DNA from: a virus
DNA length: 64,000 nucleotides
Strand: one strand, 5' to 3'
IMG/VR virus record: IMGVR_UViG_3300047160_036265
Shown: positions 38,888 to 55,143 of the stretch, one piece after another
Layout: the number at the start of each line of letters is the position of its first letter
Numbering within the stretch: position 1 is the first letter of the stretch
Made by a program: the position numbers and the translations under genes
The notes under the pieces: generated by a model
What the model saw: only the letters and a program-made list of their open reading frames with translations
Database searches by the model: none
Told to the model about the DNA's origin: nothing

Positions 38888-38893
38888 CTAGAA

Positions 38894-40282: not shown

Positions 40283-40325
40283 CTTGTGGAGCTTCTGCTG
40301 CCACTCGTTGTAGAGTTTGTTCCAG

Positions 40326-40583
40326 TCAGTCAGCTTTTGCTTCCTTATTTTCAGTCTCCTTCGGGTCGAAGCCCATTGTGTCTTCCAGGTTCTTGCCCTG
40401 CTGATGCAGGCTTATCACCGTGCAGTTCTCCACCGCCCAGGTCAGGTCGGTGAGCATCGAGCGCACGGCCCGCCGGTCCACGTCGTTGTCGAGGTACTGG
40501 CTATAATCCTCCATCATGCCACGGGTTTCGCTGAGGATTTTCGCCAGCGCACCGAACCGTCCGGCCAGTTCCATCTTGTTCAT
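40326..40583 (-). CDS. hypothetical protein
   Basis: Trimmed to MNKMELAGRF. Confidence 0.4.
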   Translation of the reverse strand: MNKMELAGRFGALAKILSETRGMMEDYSQYLDNDVDRRAVRSMLTDLTWAVENCTVISLHQQGKNLEDTMGFDPKETENKEAKAD

Positions 40584-40587
40584 GGCA

Positions 40588-41631
40588 TCACCATACCTCA
40601 ATATCACCATCGTTTTCTATGCCAGTCACCTTCGCACCGTTGTAAAGCACGTCGCCCGGCTTCAATTCGCCCGCACGCCGGGAAGCCCCGCCCGGCACAA
40701 CATAGGGGGTTTCTTCACTGCACCGAACTGGCTCAACCTCCCCCTCCACCGACATTAGGAGCGCCGGCGTGGTTCGCGTTGCCACGCCCCTTCGGGCTTG
40801 CAAGGAGCGGGTAACAAACTTGAAAAACCCGATATTCGCGTTGGCGTCCGGCAGTGATAAAACGCAAGTATACGGGACACCACAGTGGGGATCAATACGC
40901 TCATCAAAGGCCCGCTTGTAGAAAAAGGGCGGGTAGCTGTTCCAGTAATGGATATTGCAAACGTCCGTCAGGAAGCTGGGAACCTTCATGCGATGGTCCA
41001 GGTGCGATTCAAAATTCATGACAACCTCAATAGGCAGGTTGATGGCTGCCAGCCCCATTGCCATGCCCACCATTTCCCGGCAATAATACCCCATCTCCCC
41101 GCCGTGCAGCTTGCCGCTCGCCACCGGATAATTCTCGGCCAGGAACTTGCAATAACCGACCATAACCTCGAAGATGGAATCCGGGGCGGTGTTGAACTGA
41201 TAAAAAGCCCCAACCGGATACCAATTTGCAAACGGGAAGCGGTCGTAACCGTGTCCTTGTTCCAAGATGTCCCGGTGCATCCCCTCGACATACTGGCAGG
41301 CAATGGGTGCAGCACTCTGAGGCGGAACCTGCCTCATCACCACGTCGGCGTCCATGAGAGTTACGGGTTGGCGCACTAACCCCTTCTTGACGGCCACCAG
41401 CAGCGAATAGGGCTTGGTCATGGGGTAGCAATACTGGTCCCAGGAGGCACCAATGTGAGGCACCTGAAAAGCTCGCCGCCAGGACGGGGGAGGGTTGGGC
41501 GGGCCAATCAGCGGATCGGACCACGCCACCACCAAGTTGTTCTCGATGCCCAATAAGGTCATGCTCTCCACCAGCAAATCTAATTGCCAGCGCATGAAAG
41601 GGCGGTTTTCAATGTGAACTAGATAATCCAT
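40588..41631 (-). CDS. hypothetical protein (~347 aa)
   Basis: Trimmed to MDYLVHIENRPF. The N-terminal extension of the 423-aa ORF is Ser/Arg-rich junk that overlaps the upstream gene. Confidence 0.5.
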   Translation of the reverse strand: MDYLVHIENRPFMRWQLDLLVESMTLLGIENNLVVAWSDPLIGPPNPPPSWRRAFQVPHIGASWDQYCYPMTKPYSLLVAVKKGLVRQPVTLMDADVVMRQVPPQSAAPIACQYVEGMHRDILEQGHGYDRFPFANWYPVGAFYQFNTAPDSIFEVMVGYCKFLAENYPVASGKLHGGEMGYYCREMVGMAMGLAAINLPIEVVMNFESHLDHRMKVPSFLTDVCNIHYWNSYPPFFYKRAFDERIDPHCGVPYTCVLSLPDANANIGFFKFVTRSLQARRGVATRTTPALLMSVEGEVEPVRCSEETPYVVPGGASRRAGELKPGDVLYNGAKVTGIENDGDIEVW

Positions 41632-42235
41632 GTTTCGGTGCGGCCTTACGGAACTCCGTGGCCAGGCTATTATAGACCGGCTGATACTTGTCCTTGAAAT
41701 ACTCCCAATTGTATTGTTGGGCATCACGGATTTCAAACCAGAAGCGATTGGCGGCGGCGTAGTTGCTGAGCCGCCCCGTGCTGGCGATCTGGGTTCCGAA
41801 AATGAGAATCCGCAGGCTGTGGAACAGGCTCTTCCAGCCGATGTAATAGTCCTTTTCAACTTCCAGCTTCTTTTTGGCCTTCACGAAACTGTGACTGGCC
41901 TTTTGCGACAACTCGCTGCGCAAGGTGCCAAGGTCGAGGGCAAAGGTGAATTCCTTCGCCACCCGGCCATCGGGCAGATAGTACGCCTCCAAGGCGTGTA
42001 TCTTGTGCCGATTAAGCTGGTCTTGGAAGTCCCGGCGGTTGAAGATGTGTATGTTGACGTTATCGCGCTGATATTCCTCGCCGGTGTCAGCCCGGCGGTT
42101 CGCTGGGACAATCGCCAGATAATCCTCGTCGGAATCCTTACCGGCGGTGCCATAGACCCTGGACCCGTAGGGAACAAACAGCACGTCCTGTTCCCTGAGT
42201 CCGTAGGTAGCCCGGAAGTAGGTCAAGGGGTCCAC
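41609..42235 (-). CDS. Pol-beta superfamily nucleotidyltransferase (second copy type)
   Basis: LFVPYGSRVYGTAGKDSDEDYLAIV. Confidence 0.55.
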   Translation of the reverse strand: MDPLTYFRATYGLREQDVLFVPYGSRVYGTAGKDSDEDYLAIVPANRRADTGEEYQRDNVNIHIFNRRDFQDQLNRHKIHALEAYYLPDGRVAKEFTFALDLGTLRSELSQKASHSFVKAKKKLEVEKDYYIGWKSLFHSLRILIFGTQIASTGRLSNYAAANRFWFEIRDAQQYNWEYFKDKYQPVYNSLATEFRKAAPKHGLSSSH

Positions 42236-42256
42236 GATGCACCGTCACTCTCCAGT

Positions 42257-42580
42257 TTATATGACCTTGCCCAATATGGCGATTAGCCAGGGGCGGTCCT
42301 CCATGTTATGGCAGAAGTTGATGATCTTCTCCAGTTCACCGCTGACTTGCAGGGCCTTCAACTCCTGCACCATTTTGACCAACATCTTGATGTCCGCCTG
42401 AAGTTTGTCCTGCGTCATGCCGGCAATCGAACCTGCCACGAAGGCAGTGACAATATGTACGATAGCAGGGTGGTCGTTCTCCAGACGGTCCAGAACGTCG
42501 ATGAGCTTGTCATCAGGCGTTAAAGTATCCCGTATCTTCTCTAACGCTGCGCCCATCGTAGCGAAATCATTGGTTGTCAT
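42257..42580 (-). CDS. hypothetical protein
   Basis: Trimmed to MTTNDFATMG. The upstream part of the ORF is simply the translation of the tRNA-Gly gene. Confidence 0.5.
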   Translation of the reverse strand: MTTNDFATMGAALEKIRDTLTPDDKLIDVLDRLENDHPAIVHIVTAFVAGSIAGMTQDKLQADIKMLVKMVQELKALQVSGELEKIINFCHNMEDRPWLIAILGKVI

Positions 42581-42600
42581 ATGCCTCCTTGCTAAGACAG

Positions 42601-42673
42601 AGCGGGTGATGGGACTCGAACCCACGACATTCACGTTGGCAACGTGACGCTCTACCAACTGAGCTACACCCGC
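42601..42673 (-). tRNA. tRNA-Gly (anticodon GCC)
   Basis: Manual fold: GCGGGTG acceptor, GCTC-AGTTGGTA-GAGC D-arm, anticodon loop TTGCCAA, T-arm GTGGG-TTCGAGT-CCCAT. Confidence 0.85.
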
Positions 42674-42690
42674 ATTACTTATATAGTGCC

Positions 42691-42906
42691 TCAACCCAAA
42701 TTATAACCCACCCGCCGGAGCGTTCGCACCCCCTCCACCAATTCGACCCGGTGTGTGACGCCAGGAGGCGTCGGCCCATCGCCCTCATATACCTGGCCGT
42801 TGGCAACCAGGGCTTCAATAAACTTCAGGGCAGCCTTTATAGCCCTCTCATCGGTGCCTACCGTTTGCACGTCGATGTCACCCAGAGCCGTGTCCTTCAG
42901 GATCAT
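42691..42906 (-). CDS. hypothetical protein
   Basis: 71-aa ORF. Confidence 0.4.
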   Translation of the reverse strand: MILKDTALGDIDVQTVGTDERAIKAALKFIEALVANGQVYEGDGPTPPGVTHRVELVEGVRTLRRVGYNLG

Positions 42907-43453
42907 TGGTTCCCTCCTTTTTAATTTGCTCCATGAGCCATTGGATGGTGCGCTTGGCCCCAGCGAAGCTCATGACCGCCAGGCTGGGGTAATACTTCTC
43001 GATCTCCGTGCGCCAGCGGTTATCGGCCTTGCGAGCCTCGCAGTTAGACATAACGTAGGCGACAACCGCCCGGTGTCCGCCCTCGGCCATCTGCTTCTCC
43101 AGGGCCTCCTTCTTGAATCCAAAACAGGCCAGTTCGGCAATCCAGCCGTTATCGACCGGGTAGACGAACTCATCCAGGTCGAACGTCACCGGGAGGCCGT
43201 TGTCGGTGTTGACAGCGTAAGTGCCAGTGTCCGACTGGAGCTTGATATATTGCGTGGGCAACCCAGGGCGTTCCACGTTATGGAACTTGGCCCCAGGCTT
43301 CAGCGTTTCAAATTTCACCCACCCCTCCGGCGGGTGATAGTTTCCACTTGGCTTCACCATGTTTGCTATCCCCAATATGTATGGGGTGATGAGTTCAACA
43401 ACGTCGCGCATCTCCTGGTAATGAGCCGCTTCCCAGGAGTGGAAAGTCCTCAT
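42878..43453 (-). CDS. hypothetical protein
   Basis: Trimmed to MRTFHSW. Confidence 0.45.
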   Translation of the reverse strand: MRTFHSWEAAHYQEMRDVVELITPYILGIANMVKPSGNYHPPEGWVKFETLKPGAKFHNVERPGLPTQYIKLQSDTGTYAVNTDNGLPVTFDLDEFVYPVDNGWIAELACFGFKKEALEKQMAEGGHRAVVAYVMSNCEARKADNRWRTEIEKYYPSLAVMSFAGAKRTIQWLMEQIKKEGTNDPEGHGSG

Positions 43454-43722
43454 GTCTGCTGCCCTTGCTGCTGCTCGGCCCACCATTCCGCTAGGGTCTT
43501 GCCGGACTTCTCCAGCATCTCCTTGAACTCCCGGCCCCGACGCTTACGGCACTCACACACGCAGTCAGGGCAGTCACAGAAGGCCACGGCCCCGCATTCG
43601 GTGCAATAATCCTGGTTGAGCCAAGCGATAATCTTGAGTCGATCAGCGTCCTCCAGGCGGGAGATCGCCTCCTGCAACTGGCTGACGGTCAACCGGGTCG
43701 CCACCGTGTTGTATTCCTGCAT
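43450..43722 (-). CDS. hypothetical Cys-rich protein
   Basis: CTECGAVAFCDCPDCVCEC motifs. Start trimmed to MQEYNTVA. Confidence 0.4.
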   Translation of the reverse strand: MQEYNTVATRLTVSQLQEAISRLEDADRLKIIAWLNQDYCTECGAVAFCDCPDCVCECRKRRGREFKEMLEKSGKTLAEWWAEQQQGQQT

Positions 43723-43729
43723 CAAGCCC

Positions 43730-44047
43730 TCAGTTATTATTCGGATCGGGCGGCTTGCTGTCGTACACGGTGCCCGAATCCTCGACCTGGCACACCGCCG
43801 GGGCATTGCCCTTCCAGGTGCCGTCCCCACGAATGAGGATCGCCTTGGGGTTGCCCTTGGCCGCTCGCCAGCAGGCATCGCAGGCCACAACCCAACCAGC
43901 CTCCCCCATCGTCCGATCCGGGCGCATGAAGCGGACCTTTCCATCCTGCATCTTGAAAAAATGATGCTTGTCGGCGTGCAGATGCCCGCAGTGAACAATC
44001 CGCTCGCCATGCTTGGGCTGGATTTCGGTGAATTTCTTGTCGGCCAC
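43730..44047 (-). CDS. hypothetical protein (GTG start)
   Basis: RBS AGGAGG lies 5 nt before the GTG. The product is MADKKFTEIQ... Confidence 0.5.
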   Translation of the reverse strand: MADKKFTEIQPKHGERIVHCGHLHADKHHFFKMQDGKVRFMRPDRTMGEAGWVVACDACWRAAKGNPKAILIRGDGTWKGNAPAVCQVEDSGTVYDSKPPDPNNN

Positions 44048-44056
44048 AGGAGCCTC

Positions 44057-44173
44057 CTATCTGATGATGCCTGCACAAAGCATAATCAGCATCATGACAC
44101 CAAAAACTGCCAGCGTCCACAATAAAAGCCGGCCAAAAAATTCAGGGATTCCGGGAGGGCCTGCGCCATTCAT
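44057..44173 (-). CDS. small membrane peptide (~38 aa)
   Basis: MNGAGPPGIPEFFGRLLLWTLAVFGVMMLIML. It starts 3 nt after the tRNA-Thr 3' end and is below the ORF-track cutoff. Confidence 0.3.
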   Translation of the reverse strand: MNGAGPPGIPEFFGRLLLWTLAVFGVMMLIMLCAGIIR

Positions 44174-44175
44174 AG

Positions 44176-44246
44176 AGCCGGTAGAGAGAATCGAACTCTC
44201 GTCTCCTGTTTACAAGACAGGCATAATACCACTATACGATACCGGC
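44176..44246 (-). tRNA. tRNA-Thr (anticodon TGT)
   Basis: Manual fold: GCCGGTA/TACCGGC acceptor, anticodon stem CCTGT/ACAGG with loop CTTGTAA, T-arm GAGAG-TTCGATT-CTCTC. Confidence 0.8.
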
Positions 44247-44507
44247 TTAGTTGTTATTATGTATCCGCAGCATCGGCAAACTTTGCTGCAAAGAGTCCAG
44301 CAGCCCCTCCATTTCTTTTTTCAAAATCTCCTTCTGCTCAGAATCCAGGCAGGTCTTGTACTGCCGCCCCAGGTCACACAAGCGCACACAACCTTCATAA
44401 TGGGCGCGATAGAAGTCGGCATGAACCTGCCCGGCACGCCCCTCGATCTCCTCCAGAGCCAGCTTCATCACCGCCAGCGACTCTTCCATCTTGGTTAAAT
44501 CGACCAT
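44247..44507 (-). CDS. hypothetical protein
   Basis: 86-aa ORF abutting the tRNA 5' end. Confidence 0.45.
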   Translation of the reverse strand: MVDLTKMEESLAVMKLALEEIEGRAGQVHADFYRAHYEGCVRLCDLGRQYKTCLDSEQKEILKKEMEGLLDSLQQSLPMLRIHNNN

Positions 44508-45028
44508 TACTCCTCCACCGCACTCTGCCAGTAGCGGAACGTGTCGTCCGTTACCAGGGCCTCCCGGTCATGAAGGTTCTTCAGGAAATCGAAGAACGCC
44601 GCACATTCGTCCCTCATGCCTAGAAGCCGAAGGGACGTGAGGCAACGGGTAATCCGCAGCCAGTTGTGATTGGGCCGATTCCACACTTCGGGCCGGCGGG
44701 CGGCGAAGTTATCGGCCTTCTTCACCCTCCACAGGCCCTTCCCAAACTCGTCCTCATGGTACTCTAGGCCCAGGAAGTTCAGGAAGCGATGGAATGCCTT
44801 CAGCAGCCGATATTTCATCACCTTGTCAGCGTTGAACGCCGCAATATCCTCATCCGTCAGGATAGGAGCATCGGCGTTGAAGCGGCTGTGTTCCCGGAGG
44901 GGGAATAGCCACTGGATGTAGTCATGTTCGATCTCCATATCCTCGTCATCCATGCCGAGAACGGCGTCCAGCGTCCTGCCTTCCGTGTCTCTGCCCTCGC
45001 CAGAGTAAAAATCAGTCAGTTGCGACAT
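44507..45028 (-). CDS. OGFr-family (opioid growth factor receptor conserved region-like) protein
   Basis: DYIQWLFPLREHSRFN ... HNWLRITR resemble the OGFr_N conserved region. Confidence 0.4.
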   Translation of the reverse strand: MSQLTDFYSGEGRDTEGRTLDAVLGMDDEDMEIEHDYIQWLFPLREHSRFNADAPILTDEDIAAFNADKVMKYRLLKAFHRFLNFLGLEYHEDEFGKGLWRVKKADNFAARRPEVWNRPNHNWLRITRCLTSLRLLGMRDECAAFFDFLKNLHDREALVTDDTFRYWQSAVEE

Positions 45029-45068
45029 GGATACCCCTTCAGGCGACCACGGATTTCGACGTATTTAG

Positions 45069-45563
45069 TCATTGTACTGGCGATTCGGGCTGTTGTAAAG
45101 CTTCCGGCTCCAGATAGGACTTCCATTCCGTTTCCGGTTCCGCCCCGTACCACTCATCGTCAATGCTACGGTACTTGGCCTGGTTCATGCGATCCTCCTT
45201 GTCCTTGAGCAACCCCAGGTTGGCGAAAATGTACAAAAGGGTCAAACGAATCGCGTTGGCGCTCAGGCGCTTCTGATGGAGCCTGCTGCACAACAACGAG
45301 AACTCGATCTCCCCTTGTTCCCAGAGCCAGCGGTGGAAATCCTCCACCTGGGAATCGGTTATATCCGGGAGGGTAACGGGGTGGCCTATGAAGTGAAACA
45401 TGCCGGCCAGCAGGTCGATAACGGCCACGACCTTATGGACCTTATACCAGGACTGCCGGCCCATGTCCTTGAGGCACTGGTCGGCGGTCTTGAGGTAACG
45501 GTGAAGGGGGCTGGAGTCGGTCAGGCCCGACGTTTCCGCCAGTGTGACTATCTGCCTTGGCAA
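45069..45563 (-). CDS. hypothetical protein
   Basis: 164-aa ORF. Confidence 0.45.
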   Translation of the reverse strand: MPRQIVTLAETSGLTDSSPLHRYLKTADQCLKDMGRQSWYKVHKVVAVIDLLAGMFHFIGHPVTLPDITDSQVEDFHRWLWEQGEIEFSLLCSRLHQKRLSANAIRLTLLYIFANLGLLKDKEDRMNQAKYRSIDDEWYGAEPETEWKSYLEPEALQQPESPVQ

Positions 45564-45793
45564 TGCTTTTCCTCAAGACGTTCCAAAGTGGCAATCGCCC
45601 AACCTAGCCCATAGGTCAGGTCGCTCCTTGGAATAAGCTGGCCATTCTCGGCCCGTTCAACCAGCGGCTCATTTTCAACATCCTCTTCCTTGCCCGCACC
45701 ATACCCAGCCAGCCATTCGGCCATTTTGCCGTTGACTTCGGGGCAGTGTTCCTCATGCCTTTCATCCCTGTGGAGGCAATATCGGCAACTCAT
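45548..45793 (-). CDS. hypothetical Cys/His protein
   Basis: Trimmed to MSCRYCLHRDERHEEHC. ATGA-coupled. Confidence 0.4.
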   Translation of the reverse strand: MSCRYCLHRDERHEEHCPEVNGKMAEWLAGYGAGKEEDVENEPLVERAENGQLIPRSDLTYGLGWAIATLERLEEKHCQGR

Positions 45794-46182
45794 TTTTTCT
45801 TCCGTGGCTTGGTGGCCTTCTTCTTTGGTTTCGGTTCTGGTTTTATCTCTTCCACCACGATCTCTTCGGGTGGCTCCGGCCCCACACGGGTAACAGTCGG
45901 CCACGTCTTGTAAGCCGGACGCTGGGGCTTATTCAAAACCGAGTTGACCACCGCCATATATTCTTCCCCAGCGGGCAGGAAAGGCGGCGCGACATACGGC
46001 CCCTTGAGCATATGTGAGACACCCTTCACCTTCATGACTTGATCCACCTGGCGGGCGTCGATCTGGCCGTTGATGGCGTACTCGCTGGGAATCGTCTCGA
46101 TATTTGTCACCCCCAACTGTTGCAGGAGGACGCAGGTTTCACCCATATCCGCCTGCTTCTCCAGGTATACTTTTACATTCAT
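45790..46182 (-). CDS. hypothetical protein with Lys-rich tail
   Basis: 130-aa ORF. Confidence 0.45.
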   Translation of the reverse strand: MNVKVYLEKQADMGETCVLLQQLGVTNIETIPSEYAINGQIDARQVDQVMKVKGVSHMLKGPYVAPPFLPAGEEYMAVVNSVLNKPQRPAYKTWPTVTRVGPEPPEEIVVEEIKPEPKPKKKATKPRKKK

Positions 46183-46190
46183 TATGCTCC

Positions 46191-46385
46191 TTACTGGAAC
46201 CCTTTTTCTTCGGACTCCATGACCTTTATTTCAATCTCCATAATAGAGCGCCCCAGGTCGGTTTCTTTGTCAACCTCGGACAAAGCGAACTCCTTGCTGA
46301 TGGGGCCTTTCAGGGTATGAATCTTGAAACCCGCCGGCCATCGGCGGATATGATCCATGACCTTTTGTTTCAAAGCTAATTCCAT
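46191..46385 (-). CDS. hypothetical small protein
   Basis: 64-aa ORF. Confidence 0.35.
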   Translation of the reverse strand: MELALKQKVMDHIRRWPAGFKIHTLKGPISKEFALSEVDKETDLGRSIMEIEIKVMESEEKGFQ

Positions 46386-46386
46386 C

Positions 46387-47856
46387 CTACTCCTTCAGTC
46401 GAAGTTCCCTGCGAAGCTGCTCTGGGATGCCGGCAGGGGCTTGCATTACCGCCGTCCGCCCGTGGGCATTCATCGGAAAGGCGATCACTTCCTTCAGGGA
46501 CGTTTCATTGCAAAGTAACATGGCCAGGCGGTCCAGACCAAGGGCAATTCCGCCGTGGGGAGGCGTACCCAGATCGAAAGCGTCCAGCATGTGGCCGACA
46601 CTCTCCTCCGTCTCGCCCTGATTGTACCCCATATTGCGGAAGGTAGCTTCGAGGATGTCCCGCCGGTGGGCGCGAATGCTGCCGCTCCCCACTTCGTAAC
46701 CGTTGCAAACCAGATCGTACTGATACGCCTGAATCTGGTCGAGGTTCTTACCCTCAAGGTGCCACTCCAGGTGTTCCGCAATCGGCATCGAGAAGGGGTT
46801 GTGCATGAACGTATATTCGCCCTTGGTATCGAGTTTTTCCTCGGCGGTCGTCGCCTTTTTGTACATGGGAAAACGAACGACCCAGCAAAAGGCCAGGACG
46901 TTGTTCTGTATCTGGTCGGGAGTGCGGATGTCGGGCTTGTCCGTTTTGTATTTCTCCATCGCCTCCTGGTAGGTGAGGATGGGGAAGGTGGACATGGCGT
47001 TGTCGAGAAGGTCGTAGCGGCGCTCGTCCTTGTACTCGTCGTTGCACTTGCGGCTTAGTTTGTAGCAGCAATAACGAATCACATCACTGACATGGTGGAA
47101 TATACGCCATTCCTCCGGGAAGGCGATTTCCATGTCAAGTTGTGTGAATTCAAAACCACGGTCGAGACGCAGGCTCTCGTCCCGGATGCAGCGGGCGATC
47201 TGGTAATAACCCTCGAAACCCGCCGTCATGAGCAACTGTTTGTACTGCTGGGGACTCTGCGGCAGGGCGTAGAACTTGCCCGGCTGAAGACGCGACGGCA
47301 CCACAAAATCCCGTGCCCCCTCCTTGGTGGACTTGGTAAGCATCGGGGTTTCAATATAGGTGAAGTGCGTCGTGGCGCACTGGCCCAGGATCGTGTGAAT
47401 ATACTGGATGATTTTCGAGCGCACCAGCATGTTACGGTGCAAGCGTTTGCGGCGCAGGTCCAAGTAGCGATACTGAAGGCGCTTCTCCTCATTGATCTCA
47501 TAGCCTGGGCCGTCAATGGGGATGGGAAGCTCCTTGCACTTGTTGAGAACCGTGCATGTATCCACGACCACTTCGACGCTACCCGTCAACATCTCCGGGT
47601 TGACCATGTGTTCGGGGCGCTTGACGATCTTCCCCGTAATTTCCACCACGTCTTCGGCATTCAACCCCTTCATCAAACCACGACCTACGCACTGAACAAT
47701 GCCGGTGAAGTCGCGCAGGTCAATAAACACCAGTTTGCCGTGGCTGCGCACCGTGTCCACCCAGCCCTGGAGACGCCACAGGGTCGCATCAGGCCCGCCG
47801 GTGCTGGCAAGGCGCTGGGTGGATTCGGCGGTGGTTAGTTGTCCTGGCCTTCGCAT
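46387..47856 (-). CDS. aspS: aspartyl-tRNA synthetase, bacterial type but lacking the GAD insertion domain (~490 aa)
   Basis: IETPMLTKSTKEGARDFVVPSRLQPGKFYALPQSPQQYKQLLM, QIARCIRDE, EFTQLD, GSGSIRAHR and PPHGGIALGLDRLAMLL blocks. Start trimmed to MRRPGQLTT, which aligns with E. coli MRTEYCGQL. Confidence 0.8.
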   Translation of the reverse strand: MRRPGQLTTAESTQRLASTGGPDATLWRLQGWVDTVRSHGKLVFIDLRDFTGIVQCVGRGLMKGLNAEDVVEITGKIVKRPEHMVNPEMLTGSVEVVVDTCTVLNKCKELPIPIDGPGYEINEEKRLQYRYLDLRRKRLHRNMLVRSKIIQYIHTILGQCATTHFTYIETPMLTKSTKEGARDFVVPSRLQPGKFYALPQSPQQYKQLLMTAGFEGYYQIARCIRDESLRLDRGFEFTQLDMEIAFPEEWRIFHHVSDVIRYCCYKLSRKCNDEYKDERRYDLLDNAMSTFPILTYQEAMEKYKTDKPDIRTPDQIQNNVLAFCWVVRFPMYKKATTAEEKLDTKGEYTFMHNPFSMPIAEHLEWHLEGKNLDQIQAYQYDLVCNGYEVGSGSIRAHRRDILEATFRNMGYNQGETEESVGHMLDAFDLGTPPHGGIALGLDRLAMLLCNETSLKEVIAFPMNAHGRTAVMQAPAGIPEQLRRELRLKE

Positions 47857-48860
47857 AATGGCTCCAAATAAGCGGCGGCAAAGTCTACCTTCTTCTCGAA
47901 GGGCAGTTGCCGCATATATTCCCCATTCAACCAAAGGAGTTTCGCCGGGTCAAAACTGGCCGGGGAATCGTTCACGCCGTCCAATGAAAAACATTCTACC
48001 AGTTTCGCCAGTGGAATGATTTCCGAAGTTCCGTCCAGCGCCCAACCCAGGCGAGCCAAGTAGTTGACCATCGCCTCCGGCAGATAACCCATCGCCTGAT
48101 AATAGCCCAGGACCGCCGGGTTCAGATCAGTGCGTTCGGTAAAACCAATCGTTGTCAACTTCTCACACACGTCCGGGGTCATGAACTGATCCAGGTCGCG
48201 CTTGCTGAGCTTCTTCTTCGATCCCGGCGCACAAATAAAAGACAGGTGGCCAAACTTCGGTTCGGCCCAGCCCAAACTACGAAACAGGGCCAATTGAATG
48301 GGCGTGTTGCTTAGATGTTCCTCGCCCCGGAGGATGTGGGTCACGCCCAGGTCGTGATCGTCCACCACGGAGGCGAAGTTGTAAAGGAAGGTGCCGTCCG
48401 ACCGCCGGATCACCGGGTCTTTGATGAGCTTGTCATCCCAGGTGAGCTTCTTGCGGATCAGGTCGAAACAGCCGATGCCCACGCCATCATCCCAATGGGG
48501 GATGCTGAAGCGGACAGCGCCCTCCTCCTCGTAGGCCCACCCGGAGGCAAGCAGGCTGGCGCAGACCTCCCGGTAACGGTCCAGGCGCTCGGACTGATAG
48601 AACGGGCCGGCGTCATGCGACAGGCCCAGCCAGGCGAGGCCATCAAGAATAGGCTGCACGGCCTCTTCGATGTTGCGCTCGGTGTCGGTGTCGTCAATAC
48701 GCAGGATGAACCGGCCCTGGTAACGGCGGGCGTAGAGCCAGTTGAAAAGTGCGGTTCGGACGCCGCCGATGTGCAAGTACCCCGTGGGACTAGGTGCGAA
48801 CCGAGTGACTGGTTTGAGCATGAAGTTGAGCCTGTATTTGCTTGTGTACCTCCGGCCCAA
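47835..48860 (-). CDS. glutamyl-tRNA synthetase catalytic core lacking the C-terminal anticodon-binding domain (GluQ-RS-like architecture); probable start at 48821
   Basis: VTRFAPSPTGYLHIGGVRTALFNW is the HIGH motif and KLSKR is the KMSKS motif. Colinear with E. coli GluRS residues ~1-345, then stops. Confidence 0.75.
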   Translation of the reverse strand: MGRRYTSKYRLNFMLKPVTRFAPSPTGYLHIGGVRTALFNWLYARRYQGRFILRIDDTDTERNIEEAVQPILDGLAWLGLSHDAGPFYQSERLDRYREVCASLLASGWAYEEEGAVRFSIPHWDDGVGIGCFDLIRKKLTWDDKLIKDPVIRRSDGTFLYNFASVVDDHDLGVTHILRGEEHLSNTPIQLALFRSLGWAEPKFGHLSFICAPGSKKKLSKRDLDQFMTPDVCEKLTTIGFTERTDLNPAVLGYYQAMGYLPEAMVNYLARLGWALDGTSEIIPLAKLVECFSLDGVNDSPASFDPAKLLWLNGEYMRQLPFEKKVDFAAAYLEPLCEGQDN

Positions 48861-48993
48861 CGACCATCTGATGCGGCTGTTTTGTGCCGTCTGGTTTGGT
48901 CAACAGCACTGTGTAGTAAAAGCGCTTCTGGGCCGGGCTGGCATATTCCAGCAGCCATTGCTTATAGTGCTTCAATAGTAGTAGCCCTTCCAT
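48790..48993 (-). CDS. hypothetical small protein (low confidence, overlaps GluRS-core 5' region)
   Basis: 67-aa ORF. Confidence 0.25.
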   Translation of the reverse strand: MEGLLLLKHYKQWLLEYASPAQKRFYYTVLLTKPDGTKQPHQMVVGPEVHKQIQAQLHAQTSHSVRT

Positions 48994-49214
48994 GAGAAGA
49001 AGACCCGCCAGAAAATGTACAACAGCGCCAGCACTCCCGTGAATTCCCCCAGGAAGTGAAGGACGCCGGATAGTTTCTTATATTTACGAGCGTAGGCGAA
49101 CCAGGAAGCCAGGCACAGCACGGTCACGGTAACAATGAACGTGACCAGCATCACGTTATCGAGCCATTCGAGGTAATGCCAGCGCTGCACAATGGGGTTG
49201 TCCATGCCGTTCAT
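48972..49214 (-). CDS. hypothetical membrane protein
   Basis: Two transmembrane segments. Confidence 0.45.
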   Translation of the reverse strand: MNGMDNPIVQRWHYLEWLDNVMLVTFIVTVTVLCLASWFAYARKYKKLSGVLHFLGEFTGVLALLYIFWRVFFSWKGYYY

Positions 49215-49426
49215 TGCATGATCTCCACGATGCCCTGGGCAACCAGGGTCGGCATGTCCTGAGCCTTCAAGCCGTGCAGGGCGATGTAATGCCGCTGGAC
49301 CTTATATTTCACCCCCGCAACCTCCACCGGGATGTATTCCCCCAACTGCTCAACAAGGCGCGACACCCTCCGCTCTATCGCTGGGTCGGAATAATGCAAG
49401 GGCTGACCGCAGGCGCAGTGTTGCAT
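49211..49426 (-). CDS. hypothetical protein
   Basis: ATGA-coupled. Confidence 0.4.
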   Translation of the reverse strand: MQHCACGQPLHYSDPAIERRVSRLVEQLGEYIPVEVAGVKYKVQRHYIALHGLKAQDMPTLVAQGIVEIMQ

Positions 49427-49429
49427 ATG

Positions 49430-49684
49430 TCACCCTGTCATGCCGTCGTGGATGGACACCACGACGGACTTACTCCTGACGGCGAACTTGAAATAGTGAA
49501 ATTCCGATTGGGTGGGGTCAATACCCGACTCATCCTTTAACGCCTTGAGCGCAGCCCGCTCATATTTGCGGACCAAGGCCAGGGCCTTGCGCAATTCTGC
49601 CGCCTCGGTGGCCGTGGCCGGGAAAGTAACCTCCACGATCCCGGAGGCGGCGCTGTAGTGTTCCTGCACGTCGATGGCTTTCAT
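49430..49684 (-). CDS. hypothetical protein
   Basis: Trimmed to MKAIDVQEHY. Confidence 0.4.
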   Translation of the reverse strand: MKAIDVQEHYSAASGIVEVTFPATATEAAELRKALALVRKYERAALKALKDESGIDPTQSEFHYFKFAVRSKSVVVSIHDGMTG

Positions 49685-50007
49685 TCGGCTGGCTCGATTT
49701 CGCAACTCATGGACCCCTGACACCGGGCAATCATCTTGTCTGGCCCAAAGGCGTGAACCTGCTCCTGTTTCAACTCGGCGTGTTCCTTCGTCGTGGTCAG
49801 CAGGATGGTGCGGCCCGTCTCGTGAACCTCCTTGGCGTGCTGCATCCCCTTCTCCGGCGGGAAGCCGAAAATCTTCTGCAACATCCCGATGACGTACTCG
49901 AACGAGTGGTCGTCGTCGTTCAGGAGGATGACGTTATAAGGCGGCTGTTGCTTGACTTTCTTTTCCTCTTCCGTCCGTGGTTTTGGCCTCTCAATTGTTT
50001 CCGGCAT
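49681..50007 (-). CDS. clpS: ATP-dependent Clp protease adaptor ClpS
   Basis: YNVILLNDDDHSFEYVIGMLQKIF...AKEVHETGRTILLTTTKEHAELK matches the ClpS core. Confidence 0.7.
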   Translation of the reverse strand: MPETIERPKPRTEEEKKVKQQPPYNVILLNDDDHSFEYVIGMLQKIFGFPPEKGMQHAKEVHETGRTILLTTTKEHAELKQEQVHAFGPDKMIARCQGSMSCEIEPAE

Positions 50008-50099
50008 TGTTTCCTCTTTCCGTGTTTGTTGTATTTGCGGGCACCTTACCTTACCTCCGTAGGCCCCGACTGTAAACCCCCTCTTGGGCGGTTATGGAA

Positions 50100-50276
50100 G
50101 TCTACCACCTAAAGCCTTCCCCCACAAGGTCTTTCGGCTCCTGCCCCAGAAGCTCGAAAACCCGGTCCAGGTCTTCCAGCCGCACAGGCGGCTCGCCCAT
50201 CTGGGCGAAGAGCAAGTCGATTGCCCAGGTTTCCGGCACGGGCAGGGCCATCGTGACCCAAATGACTGTCTCATAC
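50100..50276 (-). CDS. hypothetical small protein (low confidence)
   Basis: MYETVIWVTMALPVPETW... It overlaps the upstream stop by 8 nt and is below the ORF-track cutoff. Confidence 0.25.
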
Positions 50277-50495
50277 ATCCGTGTGTTCTTTCACCCACTG
50301 GTCATAAGTCTTCATGCCCGTGTGTTTGGGACGGGAGTGTTTGTATTTGAGATAATAGGGCAAGCACGTCGGGCCAGTCAACGGCTGGACCTTGATGAGC
50401 TTGTCCGCTATGAGTTGGGGGTAAATGCGGCGAACGAGGGGGATGGTGATGCGCTTGAATTGCCCATTGCCCAAATAATCATCGTAGTGTCGCAT
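50271..50495 (-). CDS. hypothetical protein
   Basis: 74-aa ORF. Confidence 0.4.
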   Translation of the reverse strand: MRHYDDYLGNGQFKRITIPLVRRIYPQLIADKLIKVQPLTGPTCLPYYLKYKHSRPKHTGMKTYDQWVKEHTDV

Positions 50496-50542
50496 AATTC
50501 ATCCTTGAATAATAAGGGCGGGCCGAAACCCGCCCTTAACTT

Positions 50543-50764
50543 CTATTCGTCTTCATCTTCGCCCTCGCCCACCTGCATGTAAATCGGGTCGCAGGCATTG
50601 CGAGGTTCCTCGATCTTTGTCACCGACCCTCCCTTTGCCACTATCTCATGGACGATGGCACGCCGGGCCTCTAAATCGCTGCCGGCGTTTTTGACGACGA
50701 TGTTGGCCGTAATCGGCCATCCCTGCGCGTCCGTCAGTGAGACGGAAAATAGCCACTCGATCAT
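50543..50764 (-). CDS. hypothetical protein with acidic tail
   Basis: 73-aa ORF. Confidence 0.4.
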   Translation of the reverse strand: MIEWLFSVSLTDAQGWPITANIVVKNAGSDLEARRAIVHEIVAKGGSVTKIEEPRNACDPIYMQVGEGEDEDE

Positions 50765-50841
50765 GGCGGTGCCCTCTCAAAAATGGTGGTTAGCACATGG
50801 TAAACCTCCGGGGGCGATGGTTCCGGTTTCAAAATAAAAGG

Positions 50842-50912
50842 AGCGGGCTACGAGATTTGAACTCGTGCTTTCAACTTGGAAGGATGACGTGCTGCCACTA
50901 CACCAAGCCCGC
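50842..50912 (-). tRNA. tRNA-Gly (anticodon TCC)
   Basis: Manual fold: GCGGGCT/AGCCCGC acceptor, anticodon loop CTTCCAA, T-arm ACGAG-TTCAAAT-CTCGT. There is one U-U mismatch in the anticodon stem and a 3-bp D-stem. Confidence 0.7.
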
Positions 50913-50946
50913 ACGAATATATTGTATGCTTGCCGTTATTGAAATA

Positions 50947-51207
50947 TCAACGGCAAGCATCTTGTGCGGCTTTGAGCCAGCCCTCGTCTTTGAGGCCCTG
51001 GCACTGGCTACAGAATTGATAGGGTCGGAAGAGGTAGTTTTCCGGCAGAACCTCGGTGGGCATCCCGCACGCCTCGCAGTAGTAGTACATTGGCGAGCCG
51101 GCGTGGAGACTCTGGTTCTCAACCTTGGTGATATGCTTGGCGTAATCCTTGCGCCGGGCAAACTGCCGAATCGCCTCCTCCTTGGCGTATTCGAGATCAG
51201 TTTTCAT
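50947..51207 (-). CDS. hypothetical Zn-ribbon protein
   Basis: CEACGM...CSQC motifs. Confidence 0.45.
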   Translation of the reverse strand: MKTDLEYAKEEAIRQFARRKDYAKHITKVENQSLHAGSPMYYYCEACGMPTEVLPENYLFRPYQFCSQCQGLKDEGWLKAAQDACR

Positions 51208-51422
51208 TTTTCGATTCCCCGAAGAAACTGGTATTCGGTCAACGGGGTGAGGTTACAAGCCTTCACACAGGTCACAGTTACGGTGCCGCAGAGTATCACG
51301 AAAAGCCCGATTGCTGCAAAAGCCATTCCCTCCGACTTTTGTTTAACGGCGGCTGCCGTGATACACATAAAGCAGATGCCGAAAAACATGCTGAGGATGG
51401 CCAGCGAGAAGAACACGATCAT
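51204..51422 (-). CDS. hypothetical membrane protein
   Basis: ATGA-coupled; two transmembrane segments. Confidence 0.45.
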   Translation of the reverse strand: MIVFFSLAILSMFFGICFMCITAAAVKQKSEGMAFAAIGLFVILCGTVTVTCVKACNLTPLTEYQFLRGIEK

Positions 51423-51447
51423 GTTATAATCCAGCCTCTACAAATTG

Positions 51448-52008
51448 TCAAGAGTTCACAAGCTGAATTTTCTTTTCCATGATGGTGTCGATTTGCTTTA
51501 TGAACGACTCAACCAGAGCCAGAAGTTCCTTATCAAGCCGCCGTTCGGCATCTTCGCTCATAAGGGCCTTGGGGTCAAGGCGCTTTTTGGCCTTTTGTTG
51601 ACCCTTCTTCGCATCGTGTCTTATATTACGAATCGTCACCCGTGCGTCTTCGGCCAGGCCACGGATTTGGGCCACCAGCTTTTCCTTCTGGCCGCTGTCC
51701 ATGCGGGGCTGCGAGACATACACCACGTCCTCCTTGCCGGGCTGATAGACACTGTATCCCTGGCCTTCTAACGCCCGCCGCACGTCCGGCAACGCCTCCG
51801 GGTCATGGGGGCGAATCTGCACGTTGTTATGCAGTTGCGGCAGCACCATCGCCACCCGCCCCAACGGCTCTACGGTGCCCTTGAAACGCACGCGCACCGC
51901 CTCAATGACGGAGATCGTATTGCCGCCGTGCAAGCCGGCAAGGTTGTCCTTGAAGTGCAGCAAGCTCTTGTCCATCTTCTGTCGGGAATTTTGAATTACC
52001 TCTTTCAT
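51448..52008 (-). CDS. frr: ribosome recycling factor
   Basis: MKEVIQNSRQKMDKSLLHFKDNLAGLHGGNTISVIEAVRVRFKGTVEPLGRVAMV...VTIRNIRHDAKK...SEDAERRLDKELLALVESFIKQIDTIMEKK is colinear with E. coli RRF. Confidence 0.8.
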   Translation of the reverse strand: MKEVIQNSRQKMDKSLLHFKDNLAGLHGGNTISVIEAVRVRFKGTVEPLGRVAMVLPQLHNNVQIRPHDPEALPDVRRALEGQGYSVYQPGKEDVVYVSQPRMDSGQKEKLVAQIRGLAEDARVTIRNIRHDAKKGQQKAKKRLDPKALMSEDAERRLDKELLALVESFIKQIDTIMEKKIQLVNS

Positions 52009-52067
52009 TTTGGCCTCCAGAATGATATTATATTGTACTGCATCAGGGTTCTATAAGGAGATATATT

Positions 52068-52631
52068 ATGAAGCAACTGTTCGCTGCTGTTCTCATGATC
52101 CTGGCCACAGGTGCTTTTGCCTTCGGGCAGCACCATAAAGGCCCGCCTGGGCATCCAGGCCCCAAGCCTGGCCATATAAAACACGACCCGTCCCATCACA
52201 AACCCGAACACCAACACATCCGCCCCCACCAGCATCGAGTTGGACCCCACCACCGTCCACACGGAGTTCACCCGCTGCATCACGGCCACAAGCGAGTGCG
52301 TGAGCGGGATTACCACAAGCATCACGGCCACCACTTCAAGTACGGCTGGTACTATCGTGGCTATCAGCACTACCACTGGAGCCACTACTTCTGGAGCAAC
52401 AAGCTGGGTTGCTATTGCTACTATGACCCATATTGCTCCCAATACTATTACTGGTGCGCCCCGCACTACTGTTACTACCCGGTCACATACTGCCCGGTCG
52501 GCTATGTCTTTGCCTACGTCGCCGTGCCTGTAGCCCCGGCGACCCCGCCACCCCTGCCGCCGGAGTCTGACGAGGATGACGATGGACCGCCAAGCGGTCC
52601 TCCCGGAAAGGGGCCTCCTCCGGGCAAGTAA
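52068..52631 (+). CDS. secreted His-rich / Tyr-Cys-rich low-complexity protein
   Basis: RBS AAGGAG. Signal peptide MKQLFAAVLMILATGAFAFG, then HHKGPPGHPGPKPGHIKHDPSHHKPEHQH..., a YCYYDPYCSQYYYWC block and a Pro-rich tail. Confidence 0.6.
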   Translation: MKQLFAAVLMILATGAFAFGQHHKGPPGHPGPKPGHIKHDPSHHKPEHQHIRPHQHRVGPHHRPHGVHPLHHGHKRVRERDYHKHHGHHFKYGWYYRGYQHYHWSHYFWSNKLGCYCYYDPYCSQYYYWCAPHYCYYPVTYCPVGYVFAYVAVPVAPATPPPLPPESDEDDDGPPSGPPGKGPPPGK

Positions 52632-52641
52632 CTAAACGACA

Positions 52642-52673
52642 AGAGGCGGGTCGAAAGACCCGCCTCTTTGTTT
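52642..52673 (+). terminator. rho-independent terminator
   Basis: agaggcgggtc-gaaa-gacccgcctct followed by TTGTTT. Confidence 0.55.
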
Positions 52674-52920
52674 ACATATTCACTTGCTTGTAGCACTGAT
52701 CCGACCGGAGTTTCTTGGCCTGGTTGATGCACTCCGTCCAGTCCCCGTTCTCAGACTGGCCCTTGACGAAATATACCGACCCCTCCTTGTTTGTGTGGCC
52801 GACACTGCACTCCGTCACGTTGCCGCTTGCATCCACTTTGTAACGGAACATTCCGTGTTCCGCATAGAGTTCTCGGACCCAACGAAACACGATGTCAATG
52901 GGAACTCGTTTCTTTGGCAT
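52672..52920 (-). CDS. hypothetical protein
   Basis: Trimmed to MPKKRVPIDIVFRW. Confidence 0.4.
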   Translation of the reverse strand: MPKKRVPIDIVFRWVRELYAEHGMFRYKVDASGNVTECSVGHTNKEGSVYFVKGQSENGDWTECINQAKKLRSDQCYKQVNM

Positions 52921-53197
52921 GTTCGAGAGCCTTCTCAAATCGGGAGATGATCTTGGCCGCTCGCTTGGGGCAGTAATCGCCCTTGGCCAGTTTATTCCGG
53001 TAATATTTGATCCATTCCTCGATTTCGTGGACTGTGCCCCGGCGGCGGCGGTTGAGGCGATATTCGTTGTGATTGCCCCGGCTACCCTTGCTGCCTGCGC
53101 CAATGCCACCGTGAATGCCAGCACGCTGGCAGAGGACTTCGCCACGCTTCCAGTCCGCTTGCATGTAGCCATGCAGGTTGTTTTGGGGAAGTGCCAT
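52895..53197 (-). CDS. hypothetical protein
   Basis: 100-aa ORF starting 13 nt downstream of tRNA-Ala(GGC). Confidence 0.4.
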   Translation of the reverse strand: MALPQNNLHGYMQADWKRGEVLCQRAGIHGGIGAGSKGSRGNHNEYRLNRRRRGTVHEIEEWIKYYRNKLAKGDYCPKRAAKIISRFEKALEHAKETSSH

Positions 53198-53209
53198 GTG
53201 TACCTCCAG

Positions 53210-53280
53210 TGGAGCCTAGCGGATTTGAACCGCTAATTCTACAATGCCATTGTAGCGTGATCCCATTTCACTAAGGCCCC
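53210..53280 (-). tRNA. tRNA-Ala (anticodon GGC)
   Basis: Manual fold: GGGGCCT/AGGCTCC acceptor with G3:U70, anticodon stem CTACA/TGTAG with loop ATGGCAT, T-arm AGCGG-TTCAAAT-CCGCT. Confidence 0.75.
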
Positions 53281-53289
53281 TGCAACTAT

Positions 53290-54144
53290 CTAGTGACCAT
53301 ACGGGCATTTGCCCGAAGTGTCAACCCGTTTTTCAACTTCCTGGCAGTCTGGTTCCAGGCCCCCTTTGAGAATGCGGTGCCGCTCCCGGAAGTACGTCGT
53401 GCTGTCCTTCGTTCGCTGGCCATCCCTGGTCAACGCCTGCTTGCCGCCATGACCGAACTTCTTGTCATTATATTGCAACCAATAAGAGAAAACCCGCTCG
53501 GCCTCCGGGGTGTTGCGATTCAGATACTCTTCCTCCAGGGTCCACTCCGCTTCCGCCGCCTCCCGCCGCATCGGAATAATATGAGCCAGCGGGGGCCAGC
53601 CGTTCGTCCTCAACGACACCTTCTCGCCAGGCTTATTGAACACGACGTTGAACCAAATGTCATATTGCATCCAGTCGGTTTCAAGAACCCCCTCCATGAC
53701 GTAAAGAAGCTGCTGCGGGTTGGGGGCATTGATCGGGCTGCGAATGTGCAGGCACCAGCCGGGCGGCGTCTCGAATATCAGCCCGGTCCAGATTTGGACA
53801 ACATTTGGTTCGACCGCCCCCCAGGTGAATTTCGTGCGCCCGGTAGGTTGGCACCACTTTTCTGTGTCGATATTGTCTTCCGGCCTCAACAAGCTGTGCA
53901 GAAGGCGGTAGTCCCAATCGTCATATGGCTGGAGGAGTTCATGCTCGAAACGGTCGCCGTGCCAAGTAATGTCAATGTCCACCGGCGGGAACAGCCACCA
54001 GCCCAAGCGGTTCACCGTGGCGTAAGGACCGCACCATTTGACGGCGGCAGGATTGGCCGCACCGTTCAGGGTCTTTTCAGCACGAATAACCCTGGACGCC
54101 TGCGGGTGCAATCGCCAGACTTTCAACTTAAAACCTTCGGTCAT
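53290..54144 (-). CDS. hypothetical protein
   Basis: 284-aa ORF. Confidence 0.5.
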   Translation of the reverse strand: MTEGFKLKVWRLHPQASRVIRAEKTLNGAANPAAVKWCGPYATVNRLGWWLFPPVDIDITWHGDRFEHELLQPYDDWDYRLLHSLLRPEDNIDTEKWCQPTGRTKFTWGAVEPNVVQIWTGLIFETPPGWCLHIRSPINAPNPQQLLYVMEGVLETDWMQYDIWFNVVFNKPGEKVSLRTNGWPPLAHIIPMRREAAEAEWTLEEEYLNRNTPEAERVFSYWLQYNDKKFGHGGKQALTRDGQRTKDSTTYFRERHRILKGGLEPDCQEVEKRVDTSGKCPYGH

Positions 54145-54904: not shown

Positions 54905-54906
54905 AA

Positions 54907-54977
54907 TGGAGCCGCCGAGAGTCGAACCCGGATTTCTACCGTGCAAAGGTAGCGTGTTCCCATTACACCACGGCCCC
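54907..54977 (-). tRNA. tRNA-Ala (anticodon TGC), second copy
   Basis: Manual fold: GGGGCCG/CGGCTCC acceptor with G3:U70, anticodon stem CTACC/GGTAG with loop TTTGCAC. Confidence 0.75.
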
Positions 54978-55143
54978 GCTCTGACTGGTAATACCCGTCA
55001 GCAGACGAGTCTTTTGCGTACAAGGGCGAATTTCACCGGCGGGCGTCGTCCAGGTCAAGCGCCTATATTCATAATAGAGTCGATAGCGGTAGAAGTAAGT
55101 GCTGTACTGGACGTGGTATTCCTCAACCTCGAACGACCCCTCC

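Follow-up and report, generated by a model that had tools for sequence, protein, structure and literature searches.

A candidate naturally split glutamyl-tRNA synthetase encoded by a probable huge phage

The DNA analysed here (the window) is a stretch of 64,000 nucleotides (nt) from the IMG/VR virus record IMGVR_UViG_3300047160_036265. Its interval 46387..48860 consists of two overlapping genes on the minus strand, the upstream one encoding the catalytic core of a glutamyl-tRNA synthetase (GluRS) and the downstream one an aspartyl-tRNA synthetase (AspRS). A third gene encodes a stand-alone anticodon-binding domain (ABD) of the GluRS type. An earlier reading made from the letters alone (the sequence-only reading) had pointed to a candidate split-off tRNA-binding domain 19 kb away from the core. 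Each element of that observation proved real, well above what chance would give, and the domain is there. It is a Pfam Anticodon_2 domain, and 19.1 kb separate the start of the core gene from the start of the ABD gene (18.1 kb from core stop to ABD start). The genes and their parts are as follows.

47835..48821, minus strand: GluRS catalytic core (putative alpha piece), 328 amino acids (aa), likely ATG start at 48821
47835..48860, minus strand: maximal open reading frame (ORF) of the GluRS core, beginning at a TTG at 48860
46387..47856, minus strand: AspRS, 489 aa, likely ATG at 47856 (maximal ORF 46387..47934)
47835..47856, minus strand: 22 nt shared by the GluRS core gene (3' end) and the AspRS gene (from its ATG)
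28970..29689, minus strand: ABD-DUF2934 protein, 239 aa, with Anticodon_2 and DUF2934 domains
29237..29689, minus strand: ABD portion of the latter (putative beta piece of GluRS), residues 1-151, from the second helix of domain 4
28985..29089, minus strand: DUF2934 tail, residues 201-235 (E 1.5e-12, 47.4 bits against a cut-off of 22)

In a Pfam scan tRNA-synt_1c is the sole match of the GluRS core (E 3.4e-72), and Anticodon_2 is not found on this polypeptide. Its translation reads HIGG at the HIGH motif and KLSKR at the KMSKS motif. The protein comprises the class I Rossmann fold, the acceptor-binding and stem-contact domains and the first helix of ABD domain 4. An AlphaFold2 (AF2) model of the core has a pLDDT of 91.5 and a pTM of 0.90, with the terminal helix at residues 308-324. 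Compared with 118 full-length homologues, the core carries the consensus residue at the positions aligned with Thermus thermophilus R5, A7, S9, HIGH, E41, Y187, R205, E208, W209 and KMSKS. The non-motif positions of this set are those which we take to bind the substrates. A single exception was seen among the positions checked, the equivalent of N191, which is Ser, the second commonest residue among the same homologues. Judged by these residues, the active site of the core is intact. A putative zinc-binding subdomain (pZBD) of about 42 residues is missing from the core, a state already described in GluRS of the PVC group (PMC4381286). The PVC-group enzymes (Methylacidiphilum, Akkermansia, Phycisphaera; PMC4381286; PDB 8jpv) share the pZBD deletion with the window core, but in them the ABD is part of the same chain, which has about 450-480 aa.

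The core was thus correctly recognised from sequence as a GluRS catalytic core with HIGG and KLSKR that ends at the anticodon domain; more precisely, its last element is the first helix of domain 4. The short core is not an assembly artefact, because the gene ends in a real stop codon which is overlapped by the AspRS start and because relatives have the same end. The end point is identical in the related assemblies L003/L007, L004, L005 and L006. Assembly truncation, read-through and frameshift were each rejected as the cause of the short core, as AspRS follows directly and no ABD-coding sequence lies downstream. A protein of 241 aa (P0010) was likewise rejected as a further split of the core, since in L004 the core is uninterrupted in a single frame and starts at a codon other than ATG.

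How the two pieces fit was read from an alignment of both with full-length homologues and with T. thermophilus GluRS (468 of 468 residues identical to 1J09_A), whose numbering is used in the following. The core runs through FDPxKLxWLNGEY and the next helix, LPFEKKVDFAAAYLE (equivalent to residues 322-340), and then stops; its end, after the helix LSLEEVAERVKPFLREAGL, corresponds to about residue 340. The ABD protein starts at the following helix, where MAERKRLALVIKALGDRLKVFSD aligns with residues 344-362. Its start corresponds to about residue 344, GDRLKVFSD being aligned with RPRFDTLKE. Together the core and the ABD protein tile a full-length GluRS with neither gap nor overlap. The break lies inside ABD domain 4, after its first helix, and residues 308-324 of the core would normally pack into a helical bundle that is here on the other protein.

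The ABD gene starts with GTG, 7 nt downstream of a GGAG. The Anticodon_2 match of its product (E 2e-13, 51.4 bits against a cut-off of 23.6) extends over residues 3-146 and covers positions 12-140 of the 141 of the profile; a profile of the ABD family matched seven GluRS C-termini in the PDB. Absence of any profile similarity between the 28970 protein and GluRS had been named as an outcome that would speak against a split enzyme, and it is not what we observe. The sequence-only reading had described the segment as resembling either the GluRS C-terminus or GatB-YqeY. The GluRS half of this description stands. The GatB-YqeY half does not, as GatB_YqeY (PF02637) was not found in the ABD protein at E<=1 in the Pfam scan and the resemblance is in fact to the LRVAxTG motif of the GluRS C-terminus. 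The DUF2934-like tail proposed for the same ORF is a genuine Pfam DUF2934 domain. An AF2 model of the 239-aa protein (pLDDT 86) places the helical domain at residues 1-151, followed by a short helix (167-178), a low-confidence linker (about 179-193) and the DUF2934 helical hairpin, with helices at 198-216 and 225-238. From the model, the linker between ABD and DUF2934 is probably disordered. When the model was compared with the PDB by Foldseek, the top 43 matches were without exception bacterial GluRS or class I lysyl-tRNA synthetase; the multiple sequence alignment behind the AF2 prediction included GluRS sequences.

Residues for anticodon recognition are present as well. T. thermophilus Arg358 has its aligned counterpart in Arg17 of the ABD protein, which presumably reads base C36 of the anticodon. 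Mutation of Arg358 converts T. thermophilus GluRS from a discriminating into a non-discriminating enzyme (PMC2978374). The motif LRVAxxG...G...LG...R is invariant in 50 aligned sequences, the ABD protein included. The position of T. thermophilus Thr444 is Gly in the ABD protein and in all aligned homologues, and for this reason we claim no state of Glu/Gln discrimination.

Six database relatives of the ABD protein with 54-100% identity were found, each combining Anticodon_2 with DUF2934, and a profile search of 1.84 billion representatives added two further, distant clusters, P0248 and P0249. Only three close stand-alone clusters came out of that search; of the weaker short matches, which might have indicated widespread free ABDs, the three inspected were C-terminal fragments of ordinary GluRS with the ASFDPxKL motif and were rejected. 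The tail is kept in P0002-P0006 and in P0249 and is absent from P0248, which has 154 aa and starts at the identical split point (MDRNKVAMLVKAMGDRIKVFAD). The DUF2934 tail is therefore not universal in the stand-alone ABD family. No member of the family was found among 185,579 bacterial and archaeal species (one genome per species), and scans of IMG/VR with the GluRS core and with the ABD yielded no relatives. A tblastn search of GenBank phages with the ABD returned no ABD homologue, only a DUF2934-like tail in LR756511. The GluRS and AspRS matches in GenBank phage records are distant (34-42% identity). Six metagenome loci of the family were found, and those that could be traced to a sample come from soil. 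DUF2934-tailed proteins were also sought as carriers of a possible common tag in the window and the related loci, where the ABD protein alone has the tail. The papers listed as mentioning DUF2934 report no function for the domain.

The arrangement recurs in a second, diverged soil contig (JGI Ga0126369_10000006, 122.5 kb), which carries core, AspRS and ABD on the same strand with about 17 kb in between. One part of it (L005) has the order ClpS, a GluRS core of 348 aa and an AspRS of 495 aa; another (L001) has the order seryl-tRNA synthetase (SerRS) core, major vault protein (MVP)-like gene, small ORF, ABD-DUF2934 and pyruvyl-transferase-like gene. This layout is that of the window, with an equal break point and protein identities of 63-77%. 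Core and ABD thus occur together in both genomes with enough sequence, the window and Ga0126369_10000006. Correlating ABD with core scores over 117 homologues, a crude measure of co-phylogeny, was uninformative (rho -0.08). By the method of Nei and Gojobori, the core has a dN/dS of 0.08 and the ABD one of 0.20-0.23; dS exceeds 1 between the more diverged sequences. On these ratios both GluRS halves are under purifying selection.

These data bear on a first alternative, namely that an insertion of about 18 kb broke up a GluRS gene and that the two pieces are what is left of it, in decay and now without function. The pieces are indeed colinear, core 5' and ABD 3' on the same strand, as an insertional disruption would leave them, and accessory genes whose use is uncertain are numerous in huge phages. 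Decay is nevertheless hard to reconcile with two intact ORFs under purifying selection across lineages with dS > 1, with conserved active-site residues in the core, with an ABD that has its own GGAG-preceded start codon and a conserved added domain, and with the confident AF2 models of both products. We consider it highly improbable.

A second alternative concerns the identity of the core. Glu-Q-RS (YadB; PDB 1nzj, 4a91) is, like the window core, a GluRS-family core of about 300 aa without an attached ABD, and the core gene overlaps the AspRS gene, a pairing that is kept in relatives. The core could then be a functional analogue of Glu-Q-RS that glutamylates queuosine 34 of tRNA-Asp, which would explain the coupling to AspRS. 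The sequence-only reading had inclined towards Glu-Q-RS from the adjacency to AspRS, and here the comparisons decided otherwise. Membership of the Glu-Q-RS clade was judged by the cut-offs of TIGR03838 and PRK05710. The core stays below the cut-off in all five NCBIfam GluQRS models (best 176.9 against 276.7 bits), whereas it exceeds that of gltX_bact (TIGR00464; 338.6 against 289.95 bits) even with one third of the profile missing. Among solved structures its best match is the GluRS of Methylacidiphilum (8jpv, 245.9 bits), as compared to 114 bits for E. coli YadB (1nzj_A). Moreover, the core has the stem-contact domain and the domain-4 helix and reaches regions of the GluRS profile that lie past the 298-aa YadB chain. 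A neighbour-joining tree built from the catalytic columns places the split cores inside a small clade of full-length GluRS with a short pZBD. After three core-only proteins, the nearest database relatives are full-length GluRS of 472-525 aa with 47-55% identity, and those with a name belong to Gemmataceae or Gemmatales. Unlike YadB, the window core is thus placed in the GltX clade, keeps the first helix of domain 4 and has a matching ABD, itself kept under selection, encoded elsewhere in the genome. A Glu-Q-RS-like activity is in our view very unlikely; on this evidence the core is a pZBD-deleted GltX nested among Planctomycete-like sequences.

Clustering of the core with full-length GltX, together with a C-terminus lost by assembly truncation, had been put forward as evidence that would count against a split enzyme. 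The clustering is real, as the split cores nest there. The truncation is not: the real stop codon, the overlap with AspRS and the recurring end point speak against it. An unsplit GluRS without pZBD was also encountered (P0014; L010 10001..11428, also in L011). It has 475 aa and is 55% identical to the window core. The contigs carrying it (ENA k141_1252110, 70 kb; JGI Ga0187846_10000212) are gene-dense, one-stranded, tRNA-rich and phage-like, and its neighbours are ClpS, peptide deformylase, Dam and N4/N6 methylases and tRNA-Asp/Pro/Cys/Arg. This context probably represents a related large phage in which gltX has been kept intact. The simplest history would be the acquisition of a pZBD-less GluRS followed by gene fission within the phage lineage. 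An origin by fission is suggested since the split cores nest in the short-pZBD full-length clade and since the unsplit P0014 lies in a similar context.

The best-supported model, to which we assign a probability of roughly 0.55, is a naturally split GluRS that assembles in trans. The proposal of such an enzyme with the 28970 protein as the missing domain finds support, at the level of sequence, in the Anticodon_2 domain, the tiling and the co-occurrence of the pieces. According to this model, fission of a GluRS gene in a huge phage gave rise to two polypeptides, alpha (47835..48821) and beta (28970..29689). In alpha, the complete catalytic body would be followed by the first ABD helix, which would serve as a handle at the C-terminus. 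Beta would provide the remainder of the alpha-helical ABD, including the arginine that reads C36, together with an acquired flexible linker and the DUF2934 hairpin. The terminal helix of alpha would dock into the helical bundle of beta and thereby re-form domain 4. The resulting non-covalent alpha/beta enzyme would bind tRNA-Glu both at the acceptor end and at the anticodon and glutamylate it, with the anticodon being read through beta and charging taking place at alpha. During infection the split GluRS may supplement charging by the host, together with the SerRS core, the probably co-transcribed GAD-less AspRS and the numerous tRNAs of the phage. Physical association of the halves, enzyme activity and specificity for tRNA-Glu are what we infer from the sequences, as are a benefit for the phage and whatever role DUF2934 may have.

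Two-gene synthetases are known from nature and from the laboratory. Alanyl-tRNA synthetase (AlaRS) of Nanoarchaeum equitans is a natural split. So is the heterodimeric alpha/beta leucyl-tRNA synthetase (LeuRS) of Aquifex aeolicus (PMC2377443), in which, as in the window, one synthetase is made from two genes. In both, the two gene products have to associate; they differ from the window GluRS in the enzyme concerned, in their break points and in being encoded by cellular genomes. In the literature we found no report of a naturally split GluRS. For GluRS there is an engineered case: to judge by the title of a study by Dubois, Blais, Huot and Lapointe (2009, Biochemistry 48:6012; cited in PMC3927822 and PMC2777447), a truncated E. 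coli GluRS reportedly is specific for tRNA-Glu and is stimulated by the free distal domain. Like the window system, that laboratory split pairs a catalytic N-terminal piece with a free complementary domain in trans. Unlike it, the split in the window is genomic, conserved, located in a phage-like element and endowed with a DUF2934 tail on the free piece. The break in the window follows the first domain-4 helix. Already known, then, are huge-phage synthetases, pZBD-less GluRS, GAD-less AspRS, core-only GluRS paralogues (YadB) and natural splits of other synthetases. What we describe looks like a natural version of a split that has so far been made only in the laboratory.

Several observations weigh against a trans-assembled enzyme. 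They lend weight to a third alternative, in which the pieces work apart, the core as a minimal GluRS that recognises tRNA-Glu by acceptor stem and D-arm, and the ABD-DUF2934 protein as an independent tRNA-binding factor. The latter might, for example, be a chaperone of tRNA-Glu/Gln, a shield against anticodon nucleases or, through DUF2934, a tether to a phage structure. A distance of 18 kb separates the two GluRS genes, which belong to different clusters, the ABD gene standing behind the MVP-like gene in conserved synteny; in most split enzymes the genes are adjacent. The ABD evolves faster than the core, with a higher dN/dS, extra insertions and the new DUF2934 domain, which could mean a new role. 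No core-only partner was detected for the distant ABDs P0005, P0006, P0248 and P0249, one of which (P0248) is tail-less, on short contigs that are indecisive either way. Other core-only aminoacyl-tRNA synthetases (aaRS) of the phage lineage, namely the SerRS core and a class Ia core (both described below), have no detected partner either, and cores of this lineage may therefore work alone. In addition, tRNA-Glu was not found within the window. [quoted passage not shown] Independent pieces do not, on the other hand, account well for a break that leaves on the core exactly the complementary helix needed to re-form domain 4. The joint presence of core and ABD in both genomes with enough sequence and the retention of the anticodon-reading Arg and of the LRVAxxG motif also argue for cooperation, as does the stimulation of the truncated E. 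coli enzyme by a free distal domain that the title of Dubois 2009 is said to report. Separate functions of the two proteins are the strongest of the rival readings, less probable in our view than the trans-assembled GluRS, which we retain as the preferred model.

The AspRS next to the core is of a known type. Its Pfam domains are the OB-fold tRNA_anti-codon and the class II core tRNA-synt_2 (E 3.2e-99); Pfam GAD was not found in the scan. It passes the bacterial cut-offs, in two stretches, for aspS_bact (TIGR00459; 466 against 373.85 bits) and PRK00476 (536.1 against 443 bits). Residues 312/313 align with residues 309/428 of the AspRS 4o2d, a short linker replacing about 118 residues of the GAD insertion, which in bacterial-type AspRS lies between motifs 2 and 3. 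The sequence-only description of a bacterial-type AspRS that skips the GAD insertion was accurate, and the strings quoted for it, YKTDKPDIRTP and FPMYKK...FMHNPFSMP, are present. Among the best 120 AspRS matches, 117 have the GAD-less form (463-509 aa, tRNA_anti-codon and tRNA-synt_2 only). Beyond the closest relatives, these are 54-59% identical to the window enzyme. Homologues of 463-480 aa with 55-59% identity number in the hundreds. The closest relatives (60-92% identity), P0128-P0133 with 489-495 aa, are on phage-like contigs. Relatives with a name are mostly Patescibacteria (Saccharimonadales, Nomurabacteria), and one is Candidatus Acidoferrales. The GAD-less AspRS of Patescibacteria/CPR, annotated as 'aspartate--tRNA ligase' or 'amino acid--tRNA ligase-related protein', have the same OB fold and class II core as the window enzyme; what sets the window copy and its closest relatives apart is their location on phage-like contigs and their coupling to a GluRS core gene. 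The window AspRS is thus not unusual, as it is one of a large GAD-less clade. It is a new member of a known form, and its interest is only in the tight coupling to the GluRS core gene. In the relatives L003, L005 and L006 the overlap with the core is 4 nt, and AspRS is probably co-transcribed and translationally coupled with the core. Three AspRS homologues of 622-625 aa (P0172, P0210, P0214) have a third Pfam domain, the YbaK/ProX-type tRNA_edit (PF04073), with no GAD listed.

Concerning the surroundings of these genes, the following further features were assigned in the window.

33731..34513, minus strand: SerRS catalytic core, 260 aa; NCBIfam serS 264.5 bits, profile positions 147-400 of 418; Pfam tRNA-synt_2b
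30129..32810, minus strand: MVP-like gene, 893 aa; Pfam MVP_shoulder (90.9 bits) and Vault_3
49681..50007, minus strand: ClpS, just upstream of the GluRS core
23752..24798 and 13530..14429, minus strand: PurM-like AIR synthase and RlaP-type nucleotidyltransferase, host-like accessory genes
44507..45028, minus strand: ORF placed, by position only, as the OGFr_N-like gene of relatives
within 19838..63378, all on the minus strand: twelve tRNA genes, Met, Ile(UAU, interrupted), Val, four Ala, two Gly, Thr and two Arg

The SerRS core lacks the N-terminal coiled-coil arm, the part that binds the variable arm of tRNA-Ser. It adjoins a cpYpsA-like gene and is kept in relatives (L001 4575..5336, L002 5208..5966, L005 20482..21243). 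A free N-terminal arm was sought near it, and ten small ORFs, six of them flanking, gave no Pfam match. A further trimmed synthetase was seen in a relative of 614,480 bp (L008, JGI Ga0480561_0000004), where 7162..8439 encodes a class Ia core (Ile/Leu/Met/Val-type) of 425 aa. This protein has no Pfam match to an anticodon-binding domain and is too short for the editing domain of isoleucyl-, leucyl- or valyl-tRNA synthetases. Encoded nearby are a DUF2934 protein of 116 aa and a GAD-less AspRS of 493 aa that shares 58% identity with the one in the window. Trimmed synthetases seem to be a theme of these elements.

No tRNA-Glu, tRNA-Asp or tRNA-Ser gene was found beside the matching synthetase genes, and an Rfam search near the genes detected tRNAs only, no T-box or other regulatory RNA. 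The tRNA gene at 26087..26180 (minus strand) is an ortholog of tRNA-Ile(UAU) in L001 and L002. Between U33 and U34 of its anticodon loop it has an insertion of 21 nt, TTTGGGTCAGACAACCCATGA, which forms its own hairpin. ARAGORN gave this tRNA no name, and its Rfam tRNA score is 62 bits. The insertion could be a mini-intron or the mark of an inactivated tRNA. Accessory genes in the relatives (L001, L004, L005) encode RRF, RF-1, PTH2, a response-regulator receiver, an OGFr_N-like protein and a product of 72 aa that matches Pfam Gp23.

The element is probably a huge phage of about 670 kb, a setting that the sequence-only reading had not recognised. Its ABD protein is 100% identical to P0001, which is on a record from a JGI contig of 669,797 bp, the probable origin of the window. 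Homologues of the MVP-like gene, which lies two genes upstream of ABD-DUF2934 with its synteny conserved, connect the element with huge phages: they occur, at 38-39% identity over 96-97% of the length, in the uncultured phages LR756500 (462 kb) and LR756501/LR756503 (735 kb). The twelve tRNA genes on one strand speak for the same assignment. No capsid, terminase or portal gene was found in the window, and lacking a capsid or terminase gene there we call the assignment probable and not proven. Ten window proteins were scanned against PHROGs; eight had no match, the MVP-like protein among them, and the other two fell into HNH endonuclease families and a glycosyltransferase family, respectively. 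Most ORFs of the window are short and without a family match. Huge phages carry up to 15 tRNA synthetases and 67 tRNAs, and phage GluRS has been documented, as stated in passages of Al-Shayeb et al. 2020 (PMC7162821). Those phages resemble the window in their aaRS genes and in the MVP-like protein common to their 462 kb and 735 kb genomes. Split or domain-minimal synthetases, as found here, are not mentioned in the same passages of PMC7162821.

GluRS is a textbook case for the view that aaRS arose as catalytic cores which later captured anticodon-binding domains. Evidence that a separate GluRS core and distal domain can cooperate has hitherto come from an engineered E. coli construct. A conserved natural split would offer a native system for studying how anticodon and active site communicate across a non-covalent interface and how small that interface can be. 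It would also bear on the exchange of specificity modules, which is relevant to orthogonal translation systems. For the phages themselves, a split GluRS would join the arm-less SerRS, the GAD-less AspRS and the class Ia core of the 614 kb relative in a lineage with several domain-minimal synthetases. Such a set suggests streamlining or re-wiring of tRNA charging and not simple capture of host genes; the AspRS part is of little weight alone, because the GAD-less form is common in Patescibacteria. We finally raise the idea, unlikely as we think it, that the split is adaptive and not neutral. The DUF2934-tailed ABD would then be a separable, regulatable specificity module that could bring the GluRS core, and perhaps further core-only synthetases such as the arm-less SerRS, to a structure built by the phage or to phage tRNAs. 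The gene of a vault-protein-like shell lies two genes upstream of the ABD gene with conserved synteny. If true, a phage with such modular aminoacylation, assembled in trans, would show in a present-day system what has been proposed as the ancestral state, with catalytic cores and tRNA-recognition domains as proteins of their own.

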